Origin: Podarcis liolepis | Taxonomy: Eukaryota | NCBI GenBank assembly: GCA_965112155.1 | Contig: OZ218103.1 | Strand: one strand, 5' to 3' | Length of the DNA: 64,000 nt | In this document: positions 19,091 to 42,842 of the stretch, piece after piece | Numbering within the stretch: the stretch's first letter is position 1 | Layout: the number at the start of each line of letters is the position of its first letter | The notes under the pieces: generated by a model | The model's database searches: none | Told to the model about the DNA's origin: nothing | What the model saw: the letters and a program-made list of their open reading frames with translations, nothing else | Translations under genes and position numbers: made by a program

Positions 19091-19552
19091 TAGTCTGAAA
19101 ATACAGGAAGATACAGCCTTGCTGATGCTAAGCAAGTCTGGATCTGATGCCTTGTGACTACCTGGAAACCACATGTATGCCATCTTGGATTCCATGATAA
19201 TAGAAGAAAAGTTGGACATAAACATAATGAAAATGAATGTCTTCCACTCTCCCACCCTGTTATTTCCTGCACTATTCAATCCCCATCTTGAGGGGAAGAT
19301 GCGAAGATTCTGTTATAGGTAAGCATGCAAAAACAGGAAGTGCCTTGTACTTCCTGTGCCCCCGCGTTCCATGACAAACAACCCAAACTACCTTCAGGTG
19401 TAAAATTGTAACAGCAAAACTATGCTGCTTTTATTATTACATCGCTGAAAAAGCCACGGGATGTATTGCTGGCTAAAAGTATGCCTGGATTCAAAACTAC
19501 ACTATACAAATTGGCATTGATGGAAGTATCTAACTGGCACGGGGGAGATTTA

Positions 19553-20014
<462 letters not shown>

Positions 20015-20573
20015 TCAAAATGGTTTAAGCAAATAAGCCAAGCCACTCATTACAAGGATAAATGGAGGAGGAATACAAAACAAGTAACCCTGATCTAGGA
20101 GAAATACTCCATCTTCATCCCAAATAGGATAAATAAGTTCCATATTTTGGATACAAACAAGAAAGCAAACCCCACTGACCAAGGAGTTCCGTATCTTTAA
20201 TGCTAGGCTTTAAAGCAGCCTCTGGCTCTAGGGAAGGATTGGGGACCTGAAGCTCTCCAGATGTTTTTCGGTGTCAACTCCAACCAGCTCCAGACACCAT
20301 GGCTAATAGTCAGGGATGATGGGAGCTGGAGTCCAATGTATCTGGAGGTCCACAGAATCCTCATCCCTTCCCCTAGAAGGATGGAAGGACCAACACAGGA
20401 TTTTCATTAAAAAAACTAATTATTTTTATAATTATAAAAAATTTAAATATTTAACACCGAGAAGTTGTAAAGAGACAAGTGCTGCTGGGGCAATTGTTGT
20501 TGCCCTATGGCTGGACCTTCAATGAGAGCCCTTTCTGTTCCCAGACAAACAGTCAATACCAGAATATTTAGAT

Positions 20574-20788
20574 CTGTGGTTCCCAACATGTGGCACACGC
20601 CCCACAGGGGGGCAATTTGATTTTAAAGGGGGGCAATTTGAGAATTAGTTAAACCAAGTTAATGTCCTTTTAGGCTTCCTCCACATGACTAGGAGTTCAC
20701 TTTTTGAATAATAAGAATTATCGTATATGTCACAGGATTTTAGAGATGCCTAGGTGGGGAACGACCAAAAAAAGGTTGGGAACCACTG
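20574..20788. mobile_element. hAT MITE
   Basis: TIRs ctgtggttcccaac / gttgggaaccactg; 8-bp TSD atttagat/atctagat. Confidence 0.8.
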
Positions 20789-21351
20789 ATCTAGATACTA
20801 TTTTAATGTGTAGCCATCAATTATGCATAGCCATCGATTATAATGTAATTAACATCACACACAACTTTTCAGCGTTCCATATGCACCTGAAACTCAGGAT
20901 AACAGATCCAATGAAGCAAACCAACACTCAAGATAGATTTGTGTGTGTACATGTGTGTATATGCTCAAGGTGGGGCCTAAAAGTCTCAAATACCCTCTCC
21001 AGCCAGGGTCTCCAATAGCCCTAAACCAACCTTTTTAGGCCACAAGCCTCCCTAATAAAATAAATTTAGGACACAAGAAACACAAGTATAGACTGCCAGG
21101 GGCACCAGCAGCCGGAAAAGCTACAGGCCCCGGCAGTGAGGCACACATAGGAGCCAACTCCTAGGGGCCAAAGTCCCTTCAGCCATCCCAATAAAATATG
21201 TGACCCCCCTCGCAAGTTGCCATTCAAATAGTGTGCGTGTATGCAGTGTTGTGGTCGGTTATGGGGGAGCTTACCTGTCCCCCCAAACATTTTATTTACC
21301 CCTGGATGCACATCATGCGTGTATCTCTCCCTTATACAACTCCGCCCTTTA

Positions 21352-21930
<579 letters not shown>

Positions 21931-34323: not shown

Positions 34324-35992
34324 ATTTTTTTTAGTAGATGGTGGAGACTGTTATTTCCACAAAAGTAAAACATGTTTTCGATAATGTCAACCTTCCTTCA
34401 AAATACTGACTGTTATACTAAACTATGGGAGATACAATGCTGAAGCAAATTTGCGGCAGTGCTATTTATTGAGTTCCCACTAGAGGTCTCTGCTGTTTAA
34501 CACTTTCACCCCAACAAATCTCTCCCTCCCCCCAATCATTTCCAGCATTACTTTAAATTCTTATAATTTATAGCTACTAGATTGAAATTTCCACCTACAT
34601 TGTAGAGAAACGGGATAGAAGTGTATGGAGAAAGTGGCTAGAGAAGTTTCTCTCTCTCCTAGCACTGGAACTCGTGGACCTCATGGGTTCAAGTCCCACG
34701 TTGGGCAAAAGATTCCTGCATTGCAGGAGATCGGACTAGATGACCCTAGTGTCCTTTCCAACTCTATAATTCTATGAATTCATGGCACAAAAACAAGGCT
34801 TGGGGTAGGAGACAATGCTGAAAGAGATATCCTCTCAAGTCATCGTGTTCATGATTTGATGCAATTGTGTGCATACTTGTGTTGTGTACGTCTGTGTTGA
34901 GTAAGGAACTAGGAACCAGGAACCACGTTCAGTCTTGTAACACACAGCCCCCCTGCCCCCTCCTTTGATACCATATCTGAAAAACTCTCTCTCCGTGTAA
35001 GCTGTCGCTTGATGAAATCAGTTTTCCTTATCAGGAAGAGGAAGATTTCTCTCTCTTCCTTCTGAAGGAGCTCTGAAAGAAGATCGCTCAGAATGATTGC
35101 TGTATCCAGGTCATCTACATGTGACGTTCATAGCTCTTGACTCTTTAGCGCTCTTCCCAGCTCTCTCTGCTGTGCAGGTAGTGGTTTTATTACCACCCCG
35201 TTCCTCTTGCCGTCGCATGATTAATCCTTGACAATCTGAACTTCTGTTGGCTTGCAATCATCAAAGGTTACCTTGAAATAGGTGGCAGACTTTTAAGGAA
35301 AAAACACAGCGTGCATGCAAATGTCTTCCTAAATGCATGTAACATTTATTACCTTTTACTGTTCTGCCAGAGATGTTTTCTTGGAAATGTGGCAACAGCA
35401 TTCATCCCTGCTTTTGCCATGGCTGTTGTCTGTTTCCTTCCACATTTAACTTGGCTTCTGCATCATGAAATGGACCTTCTGTTTTTTATTTACTCCCTAA
35501 TGCAAAACTCATCTTTCCGCAAGGGGACTGTCTTCAGGCTTATGCTTTTCCACGGGCCAAGATGGGAATTTGCAGAAAGTAATTTTGCAATCTTTTACCT
35601 CTCACCTTTTACCTTCTTCTATTCAATGTTATAGCAAACCCAGTAGAAGCCTCCTTGGCATAAGACTGCTTCATATGTTCTTATCAGCGGAAGAATGATA
35701 CCCCACAGGTTGAGCCTGCCTAGATCAATCTCATCGATCAGACCACATTGTGGCAGAGAACAGCTGCCATGCGAAAAAATGCTTGCAGGACACCTCTCTC
35801 CAGGAAAGCCAAACCCATGTATTACTGCAGAAGGTAGGCCAGGATCTCTGGTCAGTTGGGGTACAATTTTGTTCCCTCCTTGAAATACCATTCTGAAATT
35901 GAGCAAAAAACCCTGCATATTGGATGGCAAGGGAACACAGCAATATACCAGTCCCCAACTGAAATCACCAATCTCCAAGTGTTTTTAGTTGT

Positions 35993-36784
35993 TGTCAGGG
36001 GTTTAGGAGCAGAAGCACGGGCAAGGGAGGAAACAGAGAGCGAAGGGGAGGAGGCAGAAGAAAAGATGAGTGACGACGACGACCCGAGATCTCCTAGTCT
36101 TTCCAGTGAATCAGAGGATTCACAGAAAGGAGCACCAGTGGCGAGGGCAAGGGGGGAGTCTAGGGGGGCACCCCAGGAAGACAGAGCCAGAGAGGACTCA
36201 GGGGGGAGCAGCTGGAAATCGGGACCAGCGTCACCGCCAGGAAGCAGGGAAGAGGAAGGGAGCCAGGGGGGAAGCGCTGGCAGCTCACCACAGGAGGGAG
36301 GACATGAGTCAGGAGTGGCCACACCTCCACAGGAGGGAGGACATGAGTCGGGGATGGCCACACCTCCATCGGGGAGCGAAGAAACGGTTGAGAGGAAAGT
36401 GGAAGGTTGGGCGCGCGCGCCAAGTTCAAATGCAGAGGAAGGCGGCGCAGTAAGCAGCCCCGAAAGAGAGCCAGGTCCTAAAGCCCGGCGCAAGGAGGCA
36501 GGAGGGTCTGGGTCAGCGTCAGAAGAATCCCGGAAGGAAGAAGCCCCGGGGGGTAGAGGGACCCAGAGGAGGACAGTCAGGAGGAAAAGGTGGAGCAAGG
36601 CTAGGATATTAAGTTGGTGCACACAGGGCGGAGACTCAGACGGAGCTTCGCCGACCTAGCTACTAGGCGTAGAGTTGCGCGCAGCAGCGTGAGAATGGAA
36701 ACTGTAATTCAATAAAGACTTTTACTTAATGACCGCTGGCTAGCGTGATCCTCTGTGAGCTAGGATCTTCAAGCAGCTCTGACA
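35993..36784 (+). repeat. 5' LTR (792 bp)
   Basis: Direct repeat of 41823-42614; TATTAA 36607-36612, AATAAA 36711-36716. Confidence 0.97.
36607..36648 (+). promoter_or_regulatory. LTR TATA-like box and predicted transcription start (~36638)
   Basis: TATTAA lies 31 nt upstream of agacggagctt, the segment complementary to the PBS. Confidence 0.7.
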
Positions 36785-36786
36785 GT

Positions 36787-36797
36787 AAGCTCCGTCT
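36787..36797 (+). other. Self-priming primer binding site (11 nt)
   Basis: aagctccgtct is the exact reverse complement of agacggagctt (36638-36648); no TGG-starting tRNA PBS. Confidence 0.85.
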
Positions 36798-36874
36798 CCT
36801 CTTGTGGGCATCTACAGCCTCGAGGAGGGGAGAGACACAGGTGCCTACTAGCAAGCTCACGAACGGCAGACGAC

Positions 36875-37939
36875 ATGACGGCTGAGCAGCAGATAGAGGA
36901 ACTCAGAAACGCGGTGGCACAACTGAACGCCGAGGCTCTAGCATCCAGGAAGAGGGAGGAGGAAGCAGCCGCAGCCTGCAGGGATCTCCAGGTCAGGTTA
37001 GACGTGCTGACAAAGCAGACACCCCGGCAGGAGGGCATTGGGTTGGCGAGACGGACAGGCGGGCTGGTCTCTCACTTCGATGGGAACCTGCAACAGTATC
37101 CCAACTTTAGAGCCGACGTACTGTGCGCACTGCAACTGCTGCATAAAGACTTTAGAAATGAACAAGAGAGAGTGGGGTTCATCATGTCCCATCTGCATGG
37201 GGATGCGAGAGCATGGCTACGCAATTTATGGAGAGATAAGGATCCGGCGCTACAGAATGCAGATGCCTTTATTAAAGCAATGGATGGGTGTTTTTTATCA
37301 AGTATTGACGTGGATCTTGCACGGAAGGAGGTGCATGGGCTGAGACAAGGGAGGGCCAGCGTCAGGCAGTACCATGCCCGCTTTTTCGCCTTGGTCAGTG
37401 CCCTGGAATGGGACAGAGATTCGGCTCCTGTAAGAGACCTCTTTTGGGAGGGGCTGCATAACTCGATTAAAGATGAGATCGCCAGGGGGGAGAGACCCCG
37501 AACCACCCAGGAGGTCGTTCAGAGGGCACTGGCAGTGGGGGTGAGGCTGGAAGGACGTCCGTGGAACAGGGACGAAGGGCGTGGAGGGCGCGAACCAGCC
37601 GGGGGCCCCTCTTTCTTTCCCAGGGAAGCAGCGCGGGCGCAATCCACGCCTCCGCCAGGAGGAGGAGCCGAACCTATGGAGGTGGGAGGTGCAAGGGCTC
37701 AGTCAGCAACCAGAGCCCTAGCACCAGCAGCAGTGAAAGCGAAGCCTCCTAGAGGGAACAGGAAGTGTTACGTCTGTGAGGAGCCAGGGCATATGGCGAA
37801 AGAGTGTCCCCAGAGGCCCCACAAGCTCACTGCAGCCTCAGCAATGGTGACTGCAGCAACACAGCAAGGAGGACCACAGCAGGGAAACGAGGCTGTCTGG
37901 CTGGAGGAAGAGGCACTGGGGCCCAGCCAGACGTGTTAG
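36875..37939 (+). CDS. gag: Retrotransposon Gag (coiled coil, capsid, CCHC nucleocapsid)
   Basis: FDGN..Y..F capsid motif, FWEGL...IKDEI, EPMEVG motif, CYVCEEPGHMAKEC zinc knuckle; 354 aa. Confidence 0.93.
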   Translation: MTAEQQIEELRNAVAQLNAEALASRKREEEAAAACRDLQVRLDVLTKQTPRQEGIGLARRTGGLVSHFDGNLQQYPNFRADVLCALQLLHKDFRNEQERVGFIMSHLHGDARAWLRNLWRDKDPALQNADAFIKAMDGCFLSSIDVDLARKEVHGLRQGRASVRQYHARFFALVSALEWDRDSAPVRDLFWEGLHNSIKDEIARGERPRTTQEVVQRALAVGVRLEGRPWNRDEGRGGREPAGGPSFFPREAARAQSTPPPGGGAEPMEVGGARAQSATRALAPAAVKAKPPRGNRKCYVCEEPGHMAKECPQRPHKLTAASAMVTAATQQGGPQQGNEAVWLEEEALGPSQTC

Positions 37940-37954
37940 TGACGCAGTCCCCAG
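37882..37954 (+). promoter_or_regulatory. -1 ribosomal frameshift signal (G GGA AAC plus pseudoknot)
   Basis: Slippery heptamer in the gag frame, 6-nt spacer, 10-bp stem 1 and 6-bp stem 2; pol is in the -1 frame. Confidence 0.85.
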
Positions 37955-40900
37955 CGATTTTACAGCCCGTGAACCCCCTCCCGCCCAAACCAGTAGTGAG
38001 GCTCACAGCGTCTCTCCAACTGCCCAATGGAATCACCATGGACGTGCCAATCACCATTGACTCAGGCAGCAATGCGGACTTTATAGGGCAGGACTTTGTC
38101 GACAGGCACGCTGTGCAGTTGCTGCCGGCCACACTGCCCCTGCAGGTTGTCACGGTGGATGGCAGGGAGCTGCTCGGGGGGCAAGTGGTGAAGCAGACGC
38201 CACCAATGGTGATGCGACTTGGGAATCACAGAGAAATCATCAGCTTCAACGTCACTCGACTATCTGACACGCCCATTGTATTGGGCATGAGTTGGCTGGA
38301 CAAGCACAGCCCAGCGATGGCTTGGTACCAGAGGCAGCTGACCTTCGGCTCTTCCTTTTGTGCTGAACACTGCATCGTGCCCAGGCAGGAAGGAGAGGAA
38401 GAGGAGTCACAGCTGCTGCTAGGCACGCTGCAAGCGATTCCACACAAGTACGCTGAATTTTTGGAAGTTTTCTGCGAGAAGGAGGCAGACAGGCTACCCC
38501 CTCACAGACCATATGACTGCAAAATTGACCTGCTGCCGGGGGCGGCGCTGCCTAAAGGGAAACTGTATTCCATGTCAGAGGACGAACTGCAGGAACTCAA
38601 AGAGTTCATTGACCATAATTTGCAACGCGGCTTCATCCGGGAGTCCAGGGCAGTGGGGGGCAGTCCCGTATTCTTTGTTAAGAAGCGGGACACGCCCCAG
38701 AAAAGACTGGTAGTGGATTACAGGATTTTGAACAGTCTGACTAGGCCATCGGACTTCCCCATGCCCCGTATTGACGACCTCCTCGCAAAGGTACGGAAGG
38801 GCAGAGTGTTCACCAAGTTGGACCTGCGGGGGGCGTACAACCTCATTCGCATGCGGGAAGGAGATGAGTGGAAGACAGCCATGTTCACGCCACTGGGGAC
38901 CTACGAATATAGAGTTATGCCTTTTGGATTGCAAAATGGCTCCCACGTTTTTCAAGCGTTTATGCATCACGTGTTGGCGGGACTTCTCTACAAGACGTGC
39001 GTCTGTTTCTTAGATGACATCCTGATCTTTTCGGAGTCGCAGCAGGAGCATGACGGACACGTCAAGGAAGTGCTGAGCAGGCTAAAGCAACATAGGCTCT
39101 ACGCCAAGCTGGAGAAGTGCCAATTTGACGTGCCGGAGGTGGATTTTCTGGGCTACAAGCTGTCTGACAAGGGGCTCGCCATGGACAGCGCCAAGGTTCG
39201 AGCGGTGTTGGATTGGAAGAGTCCGCGCAACCGGAAGGAGGTCCAACGGTTTGTCGGCTTTGCGAACTTCTATCGCAAGTTTATCAAGGGCTTCGCGATG
39301 CAGACAGCGGCCATCACTGACACGCTTAGCTCCAAGAAGAAGAAGTTCGTTTGGACAGCGCAGGCGGAGCAGTCCTTTCAGGCACTCAAGCGTCTCTTCG
39401 CGTCGGAAGAGCAGCTGCTTCATGTCAACCCCAGCAAGCCGATGAGGGTGGAGACAGACGCCTCGGACAGAGCCGTGGGGGCGGTCCTGTTGCAGAAAGA
39501 CCCGCAGGGGGTGTGGCGACCGGGAGCGTTTTACTCCAGGAAGCTCAGCAAGTCCGAACAGAGCTACACCATCTGGGACAGGGAGTTGCTGGCCATTCAC
39601 GCAGCGTTCAAGGCGTGGAGGCACTTTCTGATCGGCGCCAAGCACACGGTGCAGGTTTGCACGGACCACAAGAATCTAGAGCACTGGCGCACGGCACAGT
39701 TCCTGAACCAGAGGCAGATACGTTGGGCTGAGTTCTTTGCAAACTTCGACTTCCGAATAGAGTATGTCCCGGGGGACACCAACATCATGGCAGACGCTCT
39801 CTCCCGTAAGCCACAGTATCTGGAGGACGCAACGCCAGCGGCCGCCATGCACATCTTCGCACCAGCAGTGTGGGCGTGCGCCGCGGCGACCGTGGACCTA
39901 GAGGCGGTGCGACGTGCGTTGCAGGAGGACTCCTTCGCACAAGCAAAGATGGCAGAGGTGCAAAGGGGCAAGGCAGCGGCCGACGGTTTCCGGTTACGAG
40001 ATGGATTGCTCATCCGAAAAGGGGCCATCTACGTGCCGGGAGACGAACTTCGAGCCAAGGTGCTGCAGCAGCTGCACGACGCGCCCACGGCCGGGCACTT
40101 TGGCAAGGAGAAGACGGTGGAATTAGTAGCCAGGGATTTCTGGTGGCCTGGAATGAGAGGGGAGGTCGCAGACTACGTGGCGAGGTGCGACACCTGCCAG
40201 AGGGCCAAACCAGTGCACAAACCGCCGGCCGGACTGTTGGAACCGCTGCAAACTCCGGTCGAACCTTGGGAAAGGGTGGCTCTGGACTTTGTCACGGATC
40301 TGCCCAGCTCAAGGGGCAAGACGGCAGTGCTGGTGGTGGTGGACCTGTTTTCCAAGATGGCGCATTTCATTCCGTGTGCGAAGGTGGCCACTGCGGAGCA
40401 AACCGCCAAACTGTTCATAGACCACGTGTTCAAGGTTCATGGTCTGCCACGGTCTATTCTGTCCGACCGGGGGCGGCAGTTCATCTCGAATTTCTGGCAG
40501 AAGCTGATGGGCTTCCTGAACGTCAAGATCAACCTGGCGTCGGCGAGACACCCGCAGACCAACGGGCAAGCGGAGCGGGTCAATGCCATCATGCAGCAGT
40601 ACCTGAGATGTTATGCAAATCAACAGCCTGCGACGTGGGTGGATTACCTACCGCTTGCCGAGTTCGCCTACAACAACACGAAGCACGTGTCCACGGGGGT
40701 CACGCCGTTCTTCGCCAACAACGGGAGGCACCCCAGAACCTTCCCGGGACTGGAAAGAATGGGGGAGGGGGAGCCGCAGACAGCAGATGCGTTCGCGTCG
40801 GAGCTGCAGGAGGTCCACGATCAGCTGAGGCGCCACCTGGAGCTGGCCAAGCACGCATACAAGGTACAAGCAGACAAGCACAGAAGGGTTGGAGAAGAGC

Positions 40901-42489
40901 TCCACGTGGGAGACTGGGTTTGGTTAGCAGCCCACGCAGTGCCGGCCAGGTCGTTGGCCAAGAAGAAACTAGGGCATAAGCAACTGGGGCCCTACCAAGT
41001 CGAAGAGCAGGTCAACCCGGTAGCTTTCAGACTGGCACTTCCGGAGGGTTCCAGAATGCATCCGGTATTCCACAGATCGGTGCTCACTCCCTACAAGGCA
41101 CCGCACAGGTTCCAGGAACCCAGAACAGCGCCGAGTCCGGTCAGAGACAGAACAGGGCACGCGGAAGTGGCACAGAAGGAGCGCATCAACGAAGTCACTG
41201 AGATTTTGGACTCCAGATGGGGGGAAGAGGGGGTAGAATACTTTCTCGCCAAGGAGGGCACCCCGGCCAGTGCGAACAGCTGGGTGCCGGGCTACGCCTT
41301 GGACGAACCTCTCCTCAAAGACGAGTTTCATGCCCTCTTTCCCCATAGACCTATGCCAGCAGAATATTTTGACGACTGGCTTTTCACGCCCACACTTTCG
41401 GCCAGCACTTTCCGGGGGTTCGACTCGGACGAGGACCCGACACAAGACGTCCGTTCCCCGGAGGGGTCACCCTCGGGATCTGCATCAGAACCCTCGTATT
41501 GGTGGGACGATAGGCCAGAGGAGCAGTGGCGCAGACGGTGGCTGGAAGGCCCAGGACGAGCAACACCGACAGGAGGAAGTGAGGGAGAGACGGACATGGA
41601 CGTTTTCGGGGACGACCCTGGTTTCGAGCACGGCGGCACAGAGATGGAAGCGGAGGTGACTGTCGTCGACGAGAGCGGGGAGGAAGACCCGGGAGACTTC
41701 AGATGGAGGCCTGCCACGGGAAGCGACCGATACCCGACGTTCGTCCCTTTGCGACAGCAGCCCCCAGCTCCAGCACCGGAAGGAGGGGAGGGGGGAATGG
41801 GGGGCTTCGAGGGGGGGATGGATGTCAGGGGTTTAGGAGCAGAAGCACGGGCAAGGGAGGAAACAGAGAGCGAAGGGGAGGAGGCAGAAGAAAAGATGAG
41901 TGACGACGACGACCCGAGATCTCCTAGTCTTTCCAGTGAATCAGAGGATTCACAGAAAGGAGCACCAGTGGCGAGGGCAAGGGGGGAGTCTAGGGGGGCA
42001 CCCCAGGAAGACAGAGCCAGAGAGGACTCAGGGGGGAGCAGCTGGAAATCGGGACCAGCGTCACCGCCAGGAAGCAGGGAAGAGGAAGGGAGCCAGGGGG
42101 GAAGCGCTGGCAGCTCACCACAGGAGGGAGGACATGAGTCAGGAGTGGCCACACCTCCACAGGAGGGAGGACATGAGTCGGGGATGGCCACACCTCCATC
42201 GGGGAGCGAAGAAACGGTTGAGAGGAAAGTGGAAGGTTGGGCGCGCGCGCCAAGTTCAAATGCAGAGGAAGGCGGCGCAGTAAGCAGCCCCGAAAGAGAG
42301 CCAGGTCCTAAAGCCCGGCGCAAGGAGGCAGGAGGGTCTGGGTCAGCGTCAGAAGAATCCCGGAAGGAAGAAGCCCCGGGGGGTAGAGGGACCCAGAGGA
42401 GGACAGTCAGGAGGAAAAGGTGGAGCAAGGCTAGGATATTAAGTTGGTGCACACAGGGCGGAGACTCAGACGGAGCTTCGCCGACCTAG
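37888..42489 (+). CDS. pol: Pol (protease, RT, RNase H, integrase with GPY/F, chromodomain, long acidic extension), expressed as a ~1,871-aa Gag-Pol by -1 frameshift
   Basis: IDSGS protease site (38059), FLDD RT site (39007), ETDASD RNase H, H..H/CDTC zinc finger, D-D-E (LDFVT, SDRG.QF, GQAERVN), LGPYQV, chromo-like EILDSR..VEYF..NSWVP; no stops or frameshifts. Confidence 0.95.
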   Translation, partial: RGCLAGGRGTGAQPDVLVTQSPAILQPVNPLPPKPVVRLTASLQLPNGITMDVPITIDSGSNADFIGQDFVDRHAVQLLPATLPLQVVTVDGRELLGGQVVKQTPPMVMRLGNHREIISFNVTRLSDTPIVLGMSWLDKHSPAMAWYQRQLTFGSSFCAEHCIVPRQEGEEEESQLLLGTLQAIPHKYAEFLEVFCEKEADRLPPHRPYDCKIDLLPGAALPKGKLYSMSEDELQELKEFIDHNLQRGFIRESRAVGGSPVFFVKKRDTPQKRLVVDYRILNSLTRPSDFPMPRIDDLLAKVRKGRVFTKLDLRGAYNLIRMREGDEWKTAMFTPLGTYEYRVMPFGLQNGSHVFQAFMHHVLAGLLYKTCVCFLDDILIFSESQQEHDGHVKEVLSRLKQHRLYAKLEKCQFDVPEVDFLGYKLSDKGLAMDSAKVRAVLDWKSPRNRKEVQRFVGFANFYRKFIKGFAMQTAAITDTLSSKKKKFVWTAQAEQSFQALKRLFASEEQLLHVNPSKPMRVETDASDRAVGAVLLQKDPQGVWRPGAFYSRKLSKSEQSYTIWDRELLAIHAAFKAWRHFLIGAKHTVQVCTDHKNLEHWRTAQFLNQRQIRWAEFFANFDFRIEYVPGDTNIMADALSRKPQYLEDATPAAAMHIFAPAVWACAAATVDLEAVRRALQEDSFAQAKMAEVQRGKAAADGFRLRDGLLIRKGAIYVPGDELRAKVLQQLHDAPTAGHFGKEKTVELVARDFWWPGMRGEVADYVARCDTCQRAKPVHKPPAGLLEPLQTPVEPWERVALDFVTDLPSSRGKTAVLVVVDLFSKMAHFIPCAKVATAEQTAKLFIDHVFKVHGLPRSILSDRGRQFISNFWQKLMGFLNVKINLASARHPQTNGQAERVNAIMQQYLRCYANQQPATWVDYLPLAEFAYNNTKHVSTGVTPFFANNGRHPRTFPGLERMGEGEPQTADAFASELQEVHDQLRRHLELAKHAYKVQADKHRRVGEELHVGDWVWLAAHAVPARSLAKKKLGHKQLGPYQVEEQVNPVAFRLALPEGSRMHPVFHRSVLTPYKAPHRFQEPRTAPSPVRDRTGHAEVAQKERINEVTEILDSRWGEEGVEYFLAKEGTPASANSWVPGYALDEPLLKDEFHALFPHRPMPAEYFDDWLFTPTLSASTFRGFDSDEDPTQDVRSPEGSPSGSASEPSYWWDDRPEEQWRRRWLEGPGRATPTGGSEGETDMDVFGDDPGFEHGGTEMEAEVTVVDESGEEDPGDFRWRPATGSDRYPTFVPLRQQPPAPAPEGGEGGMGGFEGGMDVRGLGAEARAREETESEGEEAEEKMSDDDDPRSPSLSSESEDSQKGAPVARARGESRGAPQEDRAREDSGGSSWKSGPASPPGSREEEGSQGGSAGSSPQEGGHESGVATPPQEGGHESGMATPPSGSEETVERKVEGWARAPSSNAEEGGAVSSPEREPGPKARRKEAGGSGSASEESRKEEAPGGRGTQRRTVRRKRWSKARILSWCTQGGDSDGASPT
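41809..41822 (+). other. Polypurine tract
   Basis: gagggggggatgga immediately 5' of the 3' LTR. Confidence 0.85.
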
Positions 42490-42614
42490 CTACTAGGCGT
42501 AGAGTTGCGCGCAGCAGCGTGAGAATGGAAACTGTAATTCAATAAAGACTTTTACTTAATGACCGCTGGCTAGCGTGATCCTCTGTGAGCTAGGATCTTC
42601 AAGCAGCTCTGACA
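41823..42614 (+). repeat. 3' LTR (792 bp)
   Basis: No differences from the 5' LTR seen by eye; translations identical in several frames; AATAAA 42541-42546. Confidence 0.97.
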
Positions 42615-42842
42615 GTTGTAGAGGGCAAAAACATTGCACCTGTGCAATATTAGCTGCAGTACTGCAGTCCCAATCCAACACATACATACCCAGCTACTAT
42701 TTAACTTAATATATATATATATATATATGTGGGAGATTCTGATCATGGGCCCCGTGTGTTACACCTGTGCCTTACGTATTCATTAAACTGTGCCAAATTA
42801 GCTAAAATCACGCTTATAGTGATAGTGGTATAGTGGTTAGAA

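Follow-up and report, generated by a model that had tools for sequence, protein, structure and literature searches.

In the lizard Podarcis liolepis, a complete Ty3/gypsy LTR retrotransposon very probably primes its minus-strand DNA in the manner of Tf1, using the 11 nt with which its own RNA is predicted to begin. The element lies at positions 35993-42614 of the window, by which we mean the whole 64,000-nt stretch of contig OZ218103.1 (assembly GCA_965112155.1) that was analyzed. This reading was drawn from sequence and combines the element itself, an exact pairing, a 2-nt offset, the distance to a TATA-like box, two-sided changes and the lack of a tRNA-type site. The first-pass annotation had arrived at the same mechanism, which now gains support from the two-sided changes, a 2-nt offset and a 31-nt TATA distance that are both fixed, a control lineage that lacks the pairing and a search of an incomplete tRNA set that proved negative. 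The parts of the element are as follows.

35988..35992, strand not assigned: left target-site duplication GTTGT, repeated at 42615-42619
35993..36784, + strand: 5' LTR, 792 nt, TG...CA, identical to the 3' LTR
36711..36716, + strand: AATAAA polyadenylation signal, probably used in the 3' LTR copy
36875..37939, + strand: gag, 354 aa, with DUF4939, Ty3 capsid / Retrotrans_gag and a CCHC knuckle (Pfam)
37780..42489, + strand: pol frame, 1569 codons from stop to stop, with protease, RT, RNase H, integrase, an SH3-like domain and a weak chromodomain, continuing as an extension across U3 in the 3' LTR
37882..37888, + strand: GGGAAAC, candidate -1 frameshift site by sequence in the gag/pol overlap, pol being in the -1 frame
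39427..39747, + strand: RNase H domain (PF17917, E 7.6e-33), predicted by analogy with Tf1 to cut the primer
41191..41331, + strand: chromodomain-like segment below the Pfam cut-off (PF00385, 19.1 bits against 25.1, E 0.0013)
41809..41822, + strand: polypurine tract
41823..42614, + strand: 3' LTR, 792 nt, identical to the 5' LTR
42615..42619, strand not assigned: right target-site duplication GTTGT

Because the 792-nt LTRs are identical and a 5-bp target duplication is present, the insertion is, to all appearance, recent and the element young. The domain order is gag followed by PR-RT-RH-IN, without env, and both gag and pol are free of interruptions, in agreement with the earlier description of the element as intact. 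The role of GGGAAAC is presumably the one it has in PEG10, from which we have taken it over. The best solved-structure match of the element's proteins is Ty3 Gag-Pol (E 4e-135), and gag weakly matches the PEG10 structure 7LGA (E 0.00096). The nearest full-coverage RT-RH matches are found in Podarcis muralis (85-93%) and then in Anolis (53-57%), as befits an amniote example. The five closest Podarcis proteins (85-93%) have no Pfam chromodomain, while those at 68-70% carry one. A 341-nt query of the same genome returned 1959 candidates, and all 40 that were scored proved full-length at ~100%; the family is young and large.

The pol frame continues for ~370 codons beyond the chromodomain-like segment (41371-42489), crossing all of U3 and stopping just past the primer sequence of the 3' LTR, and a Pfam search matched no family to this C-terminal extension. 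A 39-nt tandem duplication within U3 (36253-36368 and 42083-42198) is in frame with it. About 14 kb from the element, two host-gene exons with DUF4660 are located on the minus strand (19550-21867), presumably belonging to a C1orf52-like gene.

The following features bear on priming.

36607..36612, + strand: TATA-like box TATTAA, 31 nt before the 11-mer, putative in function
36638..36648, + strand: predicted first 11 nt of the RNA and predicted self-primer
36785..36786, + strand: 2-nt spacer GT between LTR end and primer-binding site (PBS), the offset being the same in all three related families
36787..36797, + strand: PBS, complement of 36638-36648, without TGG

The 5' LTR is followed by GT and then by AAGCTCCGTCT (36787-36797), which is the exact reverse complement of AGACGGAGCTT (36638-36648), 31 nt after TATTAA. 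This perfect 11-nt pairing had been noticed in the first-pass annotation, whose coordinates were all correct on re-examination, and the match cannot be extended on either side. The first TGG downstream of the 5' LTR is at 36805, 20 nt off, which bears out the earlier observation that no TGG-type tRNA site is present. With position left free, the match in a single copy is statistically modest: of 20,000 dinucleotide-shuffled versions of the LTR, 349 matched the 20 nt immediately downstream over 11 nt at some position. With 11 start positions and 5 offsets allowed, the chance estimate is ~2e-5.

To the window we added 75 stretches around gag or RT matches in the same genome, and LTR ends were called from LTR pairs and target duplications, independently of the PBS. 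An LTR pair was found in 46 of these 76 stretches, and 30 had none around an RT; one call (L145) was left out as a nested mis-call, and the ends of two others (L159, L241) were called a few bases off. Among the 33 elements with RT identity of at least 52%, 29 carry a 10-12-nt Watson-Crick match to their own LTR 2 nt past the LTR end; at the equivalent site of the remaining four, a mismatch or wobble interrupts the pairing. None of 12 control gypsy elements (RT identity 32-34%) matches its own LTR over more than 7 nt (range 5-7 nt); in 11 of them TGG occurs within the first 6 nt, and three match tRNA-Ser(GCT) over 15 nt at the tRNA 3' end. Because 29 of 33 related elements match at that offset as against 0 of 12 controls, the pairing between PBS and LTR is not due to chance.

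The 33 related elements make up three families, A, B and C. Family A has primers of the window type, AGACGGAGCTT, and of a sister type, AGAGGGGACTT; the primer of family B is GCGGGAGCAA, and those of family C are ACTGTCGGACT and ACTGTCAGAAT. At least seven different PBS sequences occur across the three families, each matching the LTR of its own family or subfamily over 10-11 nt and the LTRs of other families over 5-9 nt. In an RT tree built by quick search only, families A, B and C join reptile proteins (Anolis, gecko, snake) in a clade with support of 94 that is sister to frog and fish elements, with fungal rows outside this group and the TGG control gypsy families separate. By its grouping in this quick tree, the window element appears to be a chromovirus of the Tf1/sushi (V-clade) type.

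Several features of these families were observed in passing. Families A and C carry FLDD as their catalytic RT motif; family B has YLDD instead, and the controls have FFDD. For each of families A, B and C, the copies with the longest frame have a pol that runs into the LTR and ends 300-670 nt inside it; pol of the control families stops before the LTR or no more than 65 nt into it. A subset of L191-L210 together with L221-L233 has neither LTR pair nor motif match and is probably a further family. Six family-A2 elements with an LTR pair (L122, L124, L131, L135, L136, L137), and likewise L083, are inserted in telomere-like repeat arrays (23-50 hexamers per 400 nt of flank). Such arrays do not flank any element of family B, family C or the controls; a preference of family A2 for such target sites is possible. 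Most of the best A2 matches are located on one 40-Mb contig (G000:C20), in mirrored duplicate pairs, and this contig may be a repeat-rich sex chromosome. Two copies (L010/L011, G000:C4:35.20-35.21 Mb) stand in tandem 5830 nt apart with a shared LTR, forming a PPT-LTR-PBS junction, and similar spacings recur in the match lists of other families. In L022, the 12 nt preceding the 5' LTR equal the family's own leader stretch (window 36801-36812), and the farther flank is unrelated.

Conservation of the two 11-mers was assessed in a family-A census of 84 loci, many of them non-independent or near-identical, with 29 belonging to the window's young subfamily. The set came from a motif search that presupposes part of both sites, yet missed none; L141-L149 were left out for overlap with L061-L090. 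All 11 pairs form in 60 loci, the first pair alone is broken in 15, G-U pairs occur in two and the helix is broken internally in seven. Pairing of 10-11 bp is kept in 75 of the 84 loci, and position 1 is mismatched in 17. Among 22 distinct sequences, both sides have changed at three of the 11 pairs, and 97.5% of cells pair, as compared with 38-58% in slid controls; in number, the changed pairs do not exceed a shuffle control (340/500) because the events are few. Three of the positions with both-sided changes belong to one A1-to-A2 switch and one more is seen in L084, while two such changes occurred within family C and one in family B (L174). Compensatory changes in both 11-mers, which the first-pass annotation had proposed to look for, were found in this way within and between three families; the independent events behind this covariation are few. 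Across contigs from four other organisms, 36 substitution sites are listed in 36590-36880; the stretch 36627-36653 is free of them, and a single one, opposite position 1, falls in the PBS.

The 11-mer also keeps a fixed place relative to the promoter. A TATA-like hexamer precedes it by exactly 31 nt in 83 of 84 family-A loci, and in 26 of 29 family-B loci GATAAAA lies equally far upstream; family C shows no clear TATA box. Position 1 is a purine preceded by a pyrimidine in all three families, which is the initiator pattern, and the helix goes beyond position 1 in only two of the 84 family-A loci. Folding predicts the helix with a probability of 0.94 for an RNA that starts at 36638, and of at most 0.01 for RNAs from 36607 or 36500. 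Assembled contigs from eight sequencing runs, none of them recorded as RNA, cover U3 and R at even depth. By analogy with Tf1, we infer that transcription starts at A36638.

The steps proposed here are modeled on those of Tf1, as given in PMC7175516. RNA polymerase II would start at A36638, and the first 11 nt of the RNA would fold back on the PBS. As in Tf1, the element's RNase H would then cut between nucleotides 11 and 12 to free the primer, whose new 3' end RT would extend across GT and U5. Plus-strand synthesis would copy the primer back into the next PBS, and such re-copying would explain joint change at positions 2-11 together with tolerance at position 1. The 2-nt spacer would be trimmed by integrase; the Ty3 integrase trims its spacer likewise.

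Folding of R-U5 and the leader gave these features.

36655..36667, + strand: small predicted hairpin in R, with 96.6% of cells paired and one two-sided change
36670..36781, + strand: predicted long-range stem of 36670-36678 with 36773-36781, which closes R-U5 and ends 3 nt before the LTR end, with 99% paired and one two-sided pair
36747..36767, + strand: predicted U5 hairpin of 36747-36752 with 36762-36767, whose loop holds GTGAGCT (36755-36761), with 100% paired and two two-sided pairs
36854..36860, + strand: leader AGCTCAC, complement of the U5 hairpin loop, both partners being present in 78 of 84 loci

Overall, 98.3% of cells in the family-A R-U5 stems are paired and seven pairs show both-sided change, the paired fraction being inflated since the structure was derived from the same sequences. 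Folding and covariation together predict that R-U5 forms a closed domain, which would set the 5' end beside the PBS.

The first-pass annotation had also suggested a U5-leader pairing between GTGAGCT (36755-36761) and AGCTCAC (36854-36860). In one copy this match is at chance level, with 142 of 1000 leader shuffles reaching 7 nt. Loop and leader motifs are kept in 78 of 84 family-A loci, in leaders that are otherwise unlike and 56-112 nt long, and no both-sided change was seen in the match across the 84 loci. The match is invariant in family A, extends to 8 nt in one of two family-C copies and is absent in the family-B copy tested. As a nested stem beside the PBS, the pairing has a folding probability of 0.00 when the RNA starts at 36638. 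Because GTGAGCT sits in the loop of the U5 hairpin, the pairing would instead be a contact from loop to leader.

The primer helix itself is not predicted equally well everywhere. Among 23 folded family-A copies, five have a helix probability below 0.35. The family-B helix spans just 10 bp and has an equilibrium folding probability of 0.00 in all eight copies, and the U5 repeats offer pairings that compete with it. The R-U5 of family B (L031-L060) contains a tandem repeat of variable copy number, which places primer and PBS 168-336 nt apart.

Of the other explanations, the one that survives best, though still improbable, is that the paired segments form a conserved structure of the 5' leader that serves packaging, dimerization or translation control, priming being achieved otherwise, for example from a nick in the RNA or with a second molecule of RNA. 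Covariation reveals a helix and not its use, other R-U5 stems covary as well, and the failure to predict the helix in family B fits this view. However, the 3' strand occupies the required place of a PBS, 2 nt past the LTR, in three families that have no other primer site there, and the helix ends at the predicted first nucleotide. If a partner RNA primed in trans, this would itself count as a form of self-priming, indistinguishable from it by the present data.

It is less likely still, and by our estimate very unlikely, that a host tRNA, a tRNA fragment or another small RNA primes the element and that the LTR complementarity is secondary. Half-tRNA priming is known in copia lineages, according to PMC6317226. 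Our host tRNA set was incomplete, with 59 distinct ARAGORN calls from 64 loci covering 17 amino acids (Arg, Trp and Tyr missing). Comparison of host tRNA 3' ends with the PBS, as the first-pass annotation had proposed, yielded a best match of only 7 nt to the PBS region among these 59 genes. We also searched the genome for a 9-nt core no more than 60 nt before a B-box, for which the B-box consensus was used; this pattern gave 14 matches (7 for a reversed-pattern control), none of which was called as a tRNA. One of the 14 (L267) looks like a decayed tRNA-Ala-type repeat and has 10 letters in common with the primer, a point in favor of a small RNA. Against it, TGG is missing within 20 nt, so that a full tRNA 3' end cannot pair, and each of at least seven PBS sequences would require a separate small RNA identical to the element's own LTR segment. 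Chance complementarity, despite the 11-nt match somewhere in the LTR in 349 of 20,000 shuffles, is scarcely credible: the position is fixed, 75 of 84 loci keep 10-11 bp, changes are two-sided and the controls lack the match.

Tf1-type self-priming is a mechanism known in yeast and proposed for vertebrate sushi elements, and the lizard element reveals no new one. PMC6317226 describes self-primers 'from yeast and vertebrates' in the Tf1/Sushi group, and PMC4600332 likewise ascribes the signature to the sushi group in vertebrates, as the first-pass annotation had said. The V-clade occurs in fish, amphibians and amniotes (PMC2774666), and the literature consulted, which also took in PMC3601003, PMC4340606 and PMC2864245, counts a full-length Anolis element among its amniote members. 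Our literature search, which covered sources other than subscription journals, returned no report of lizard self-priming and no experimental test in a vertebrate.

With Tf1 and Tf2 of Schizosaccharomyces pombe and Tj1 of S. japonicus, the window element shares the type of a Ty3/gypsy chromovirus with a Tf2-type SH3 domain. In Tf1 the start site and cleavage are proven, whereas both are predicted in the lizard element. Tf1 has one ORF, no spacer before the PBS and a U5-leader stem adjoining it; in contrast, the lizard element has gag and pol overlapping in different frames, a 2-nt spacer before the PBS and the U5-leader complement in a hairpin loop. Like the vertebrate sushi or V-clade elements, it is a vertebrate chromovirus, and in the RT tree it clusters with elements of Anolis, gecko, snake, frog and fish; a sushi-type gag is seen indirectly (DUF4939, PEG10 match). 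It differs from them in its FLDD RT motif (YLDD in family B), a chromodomain below the Pfam cut-off and a pol that runs through U3. The tRNA-primed Ty3/gypsy elements (Ty3 and the control families of the same genome) are alike in domain order and fold family, but have a TGG-type PBS of their own (15 nt to tRNA-Ser(GCT) in three controls) without LTR complementarity.

A more specific proposal, which we put forward tentatively, is that the sushi elements of lizards prime themselves by a vertebrate variant of the mechanism. Here a closed R-U5 domain and a pseudoknot-like or inter-molecular contact between loop and leader would replace the U5-leader stem of Tf1, and the PBS would be re-templated from the primer in each round.

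The mammalian genes of the PEG10/RTL1 type derive from the sushi group, and the finding bears on this group of origin. Self-priming has been demonstrated in yeast Tf1 and, in the parts of the literature available to us, is only 'implicated' in vertebrates. Three young lizard families offer paired natural changes and a negative control within the same genome, and they yield exact predictions of start nucleotide, cut site and primer sequence. Annotation based on the PBS would miss such elements, and a self-complementary PBS explains why. If the vertebrate-variant reading is true, several young families that differ in primer within a single genome would amount to the first natural-variant evidence for self-priming in an amniote.
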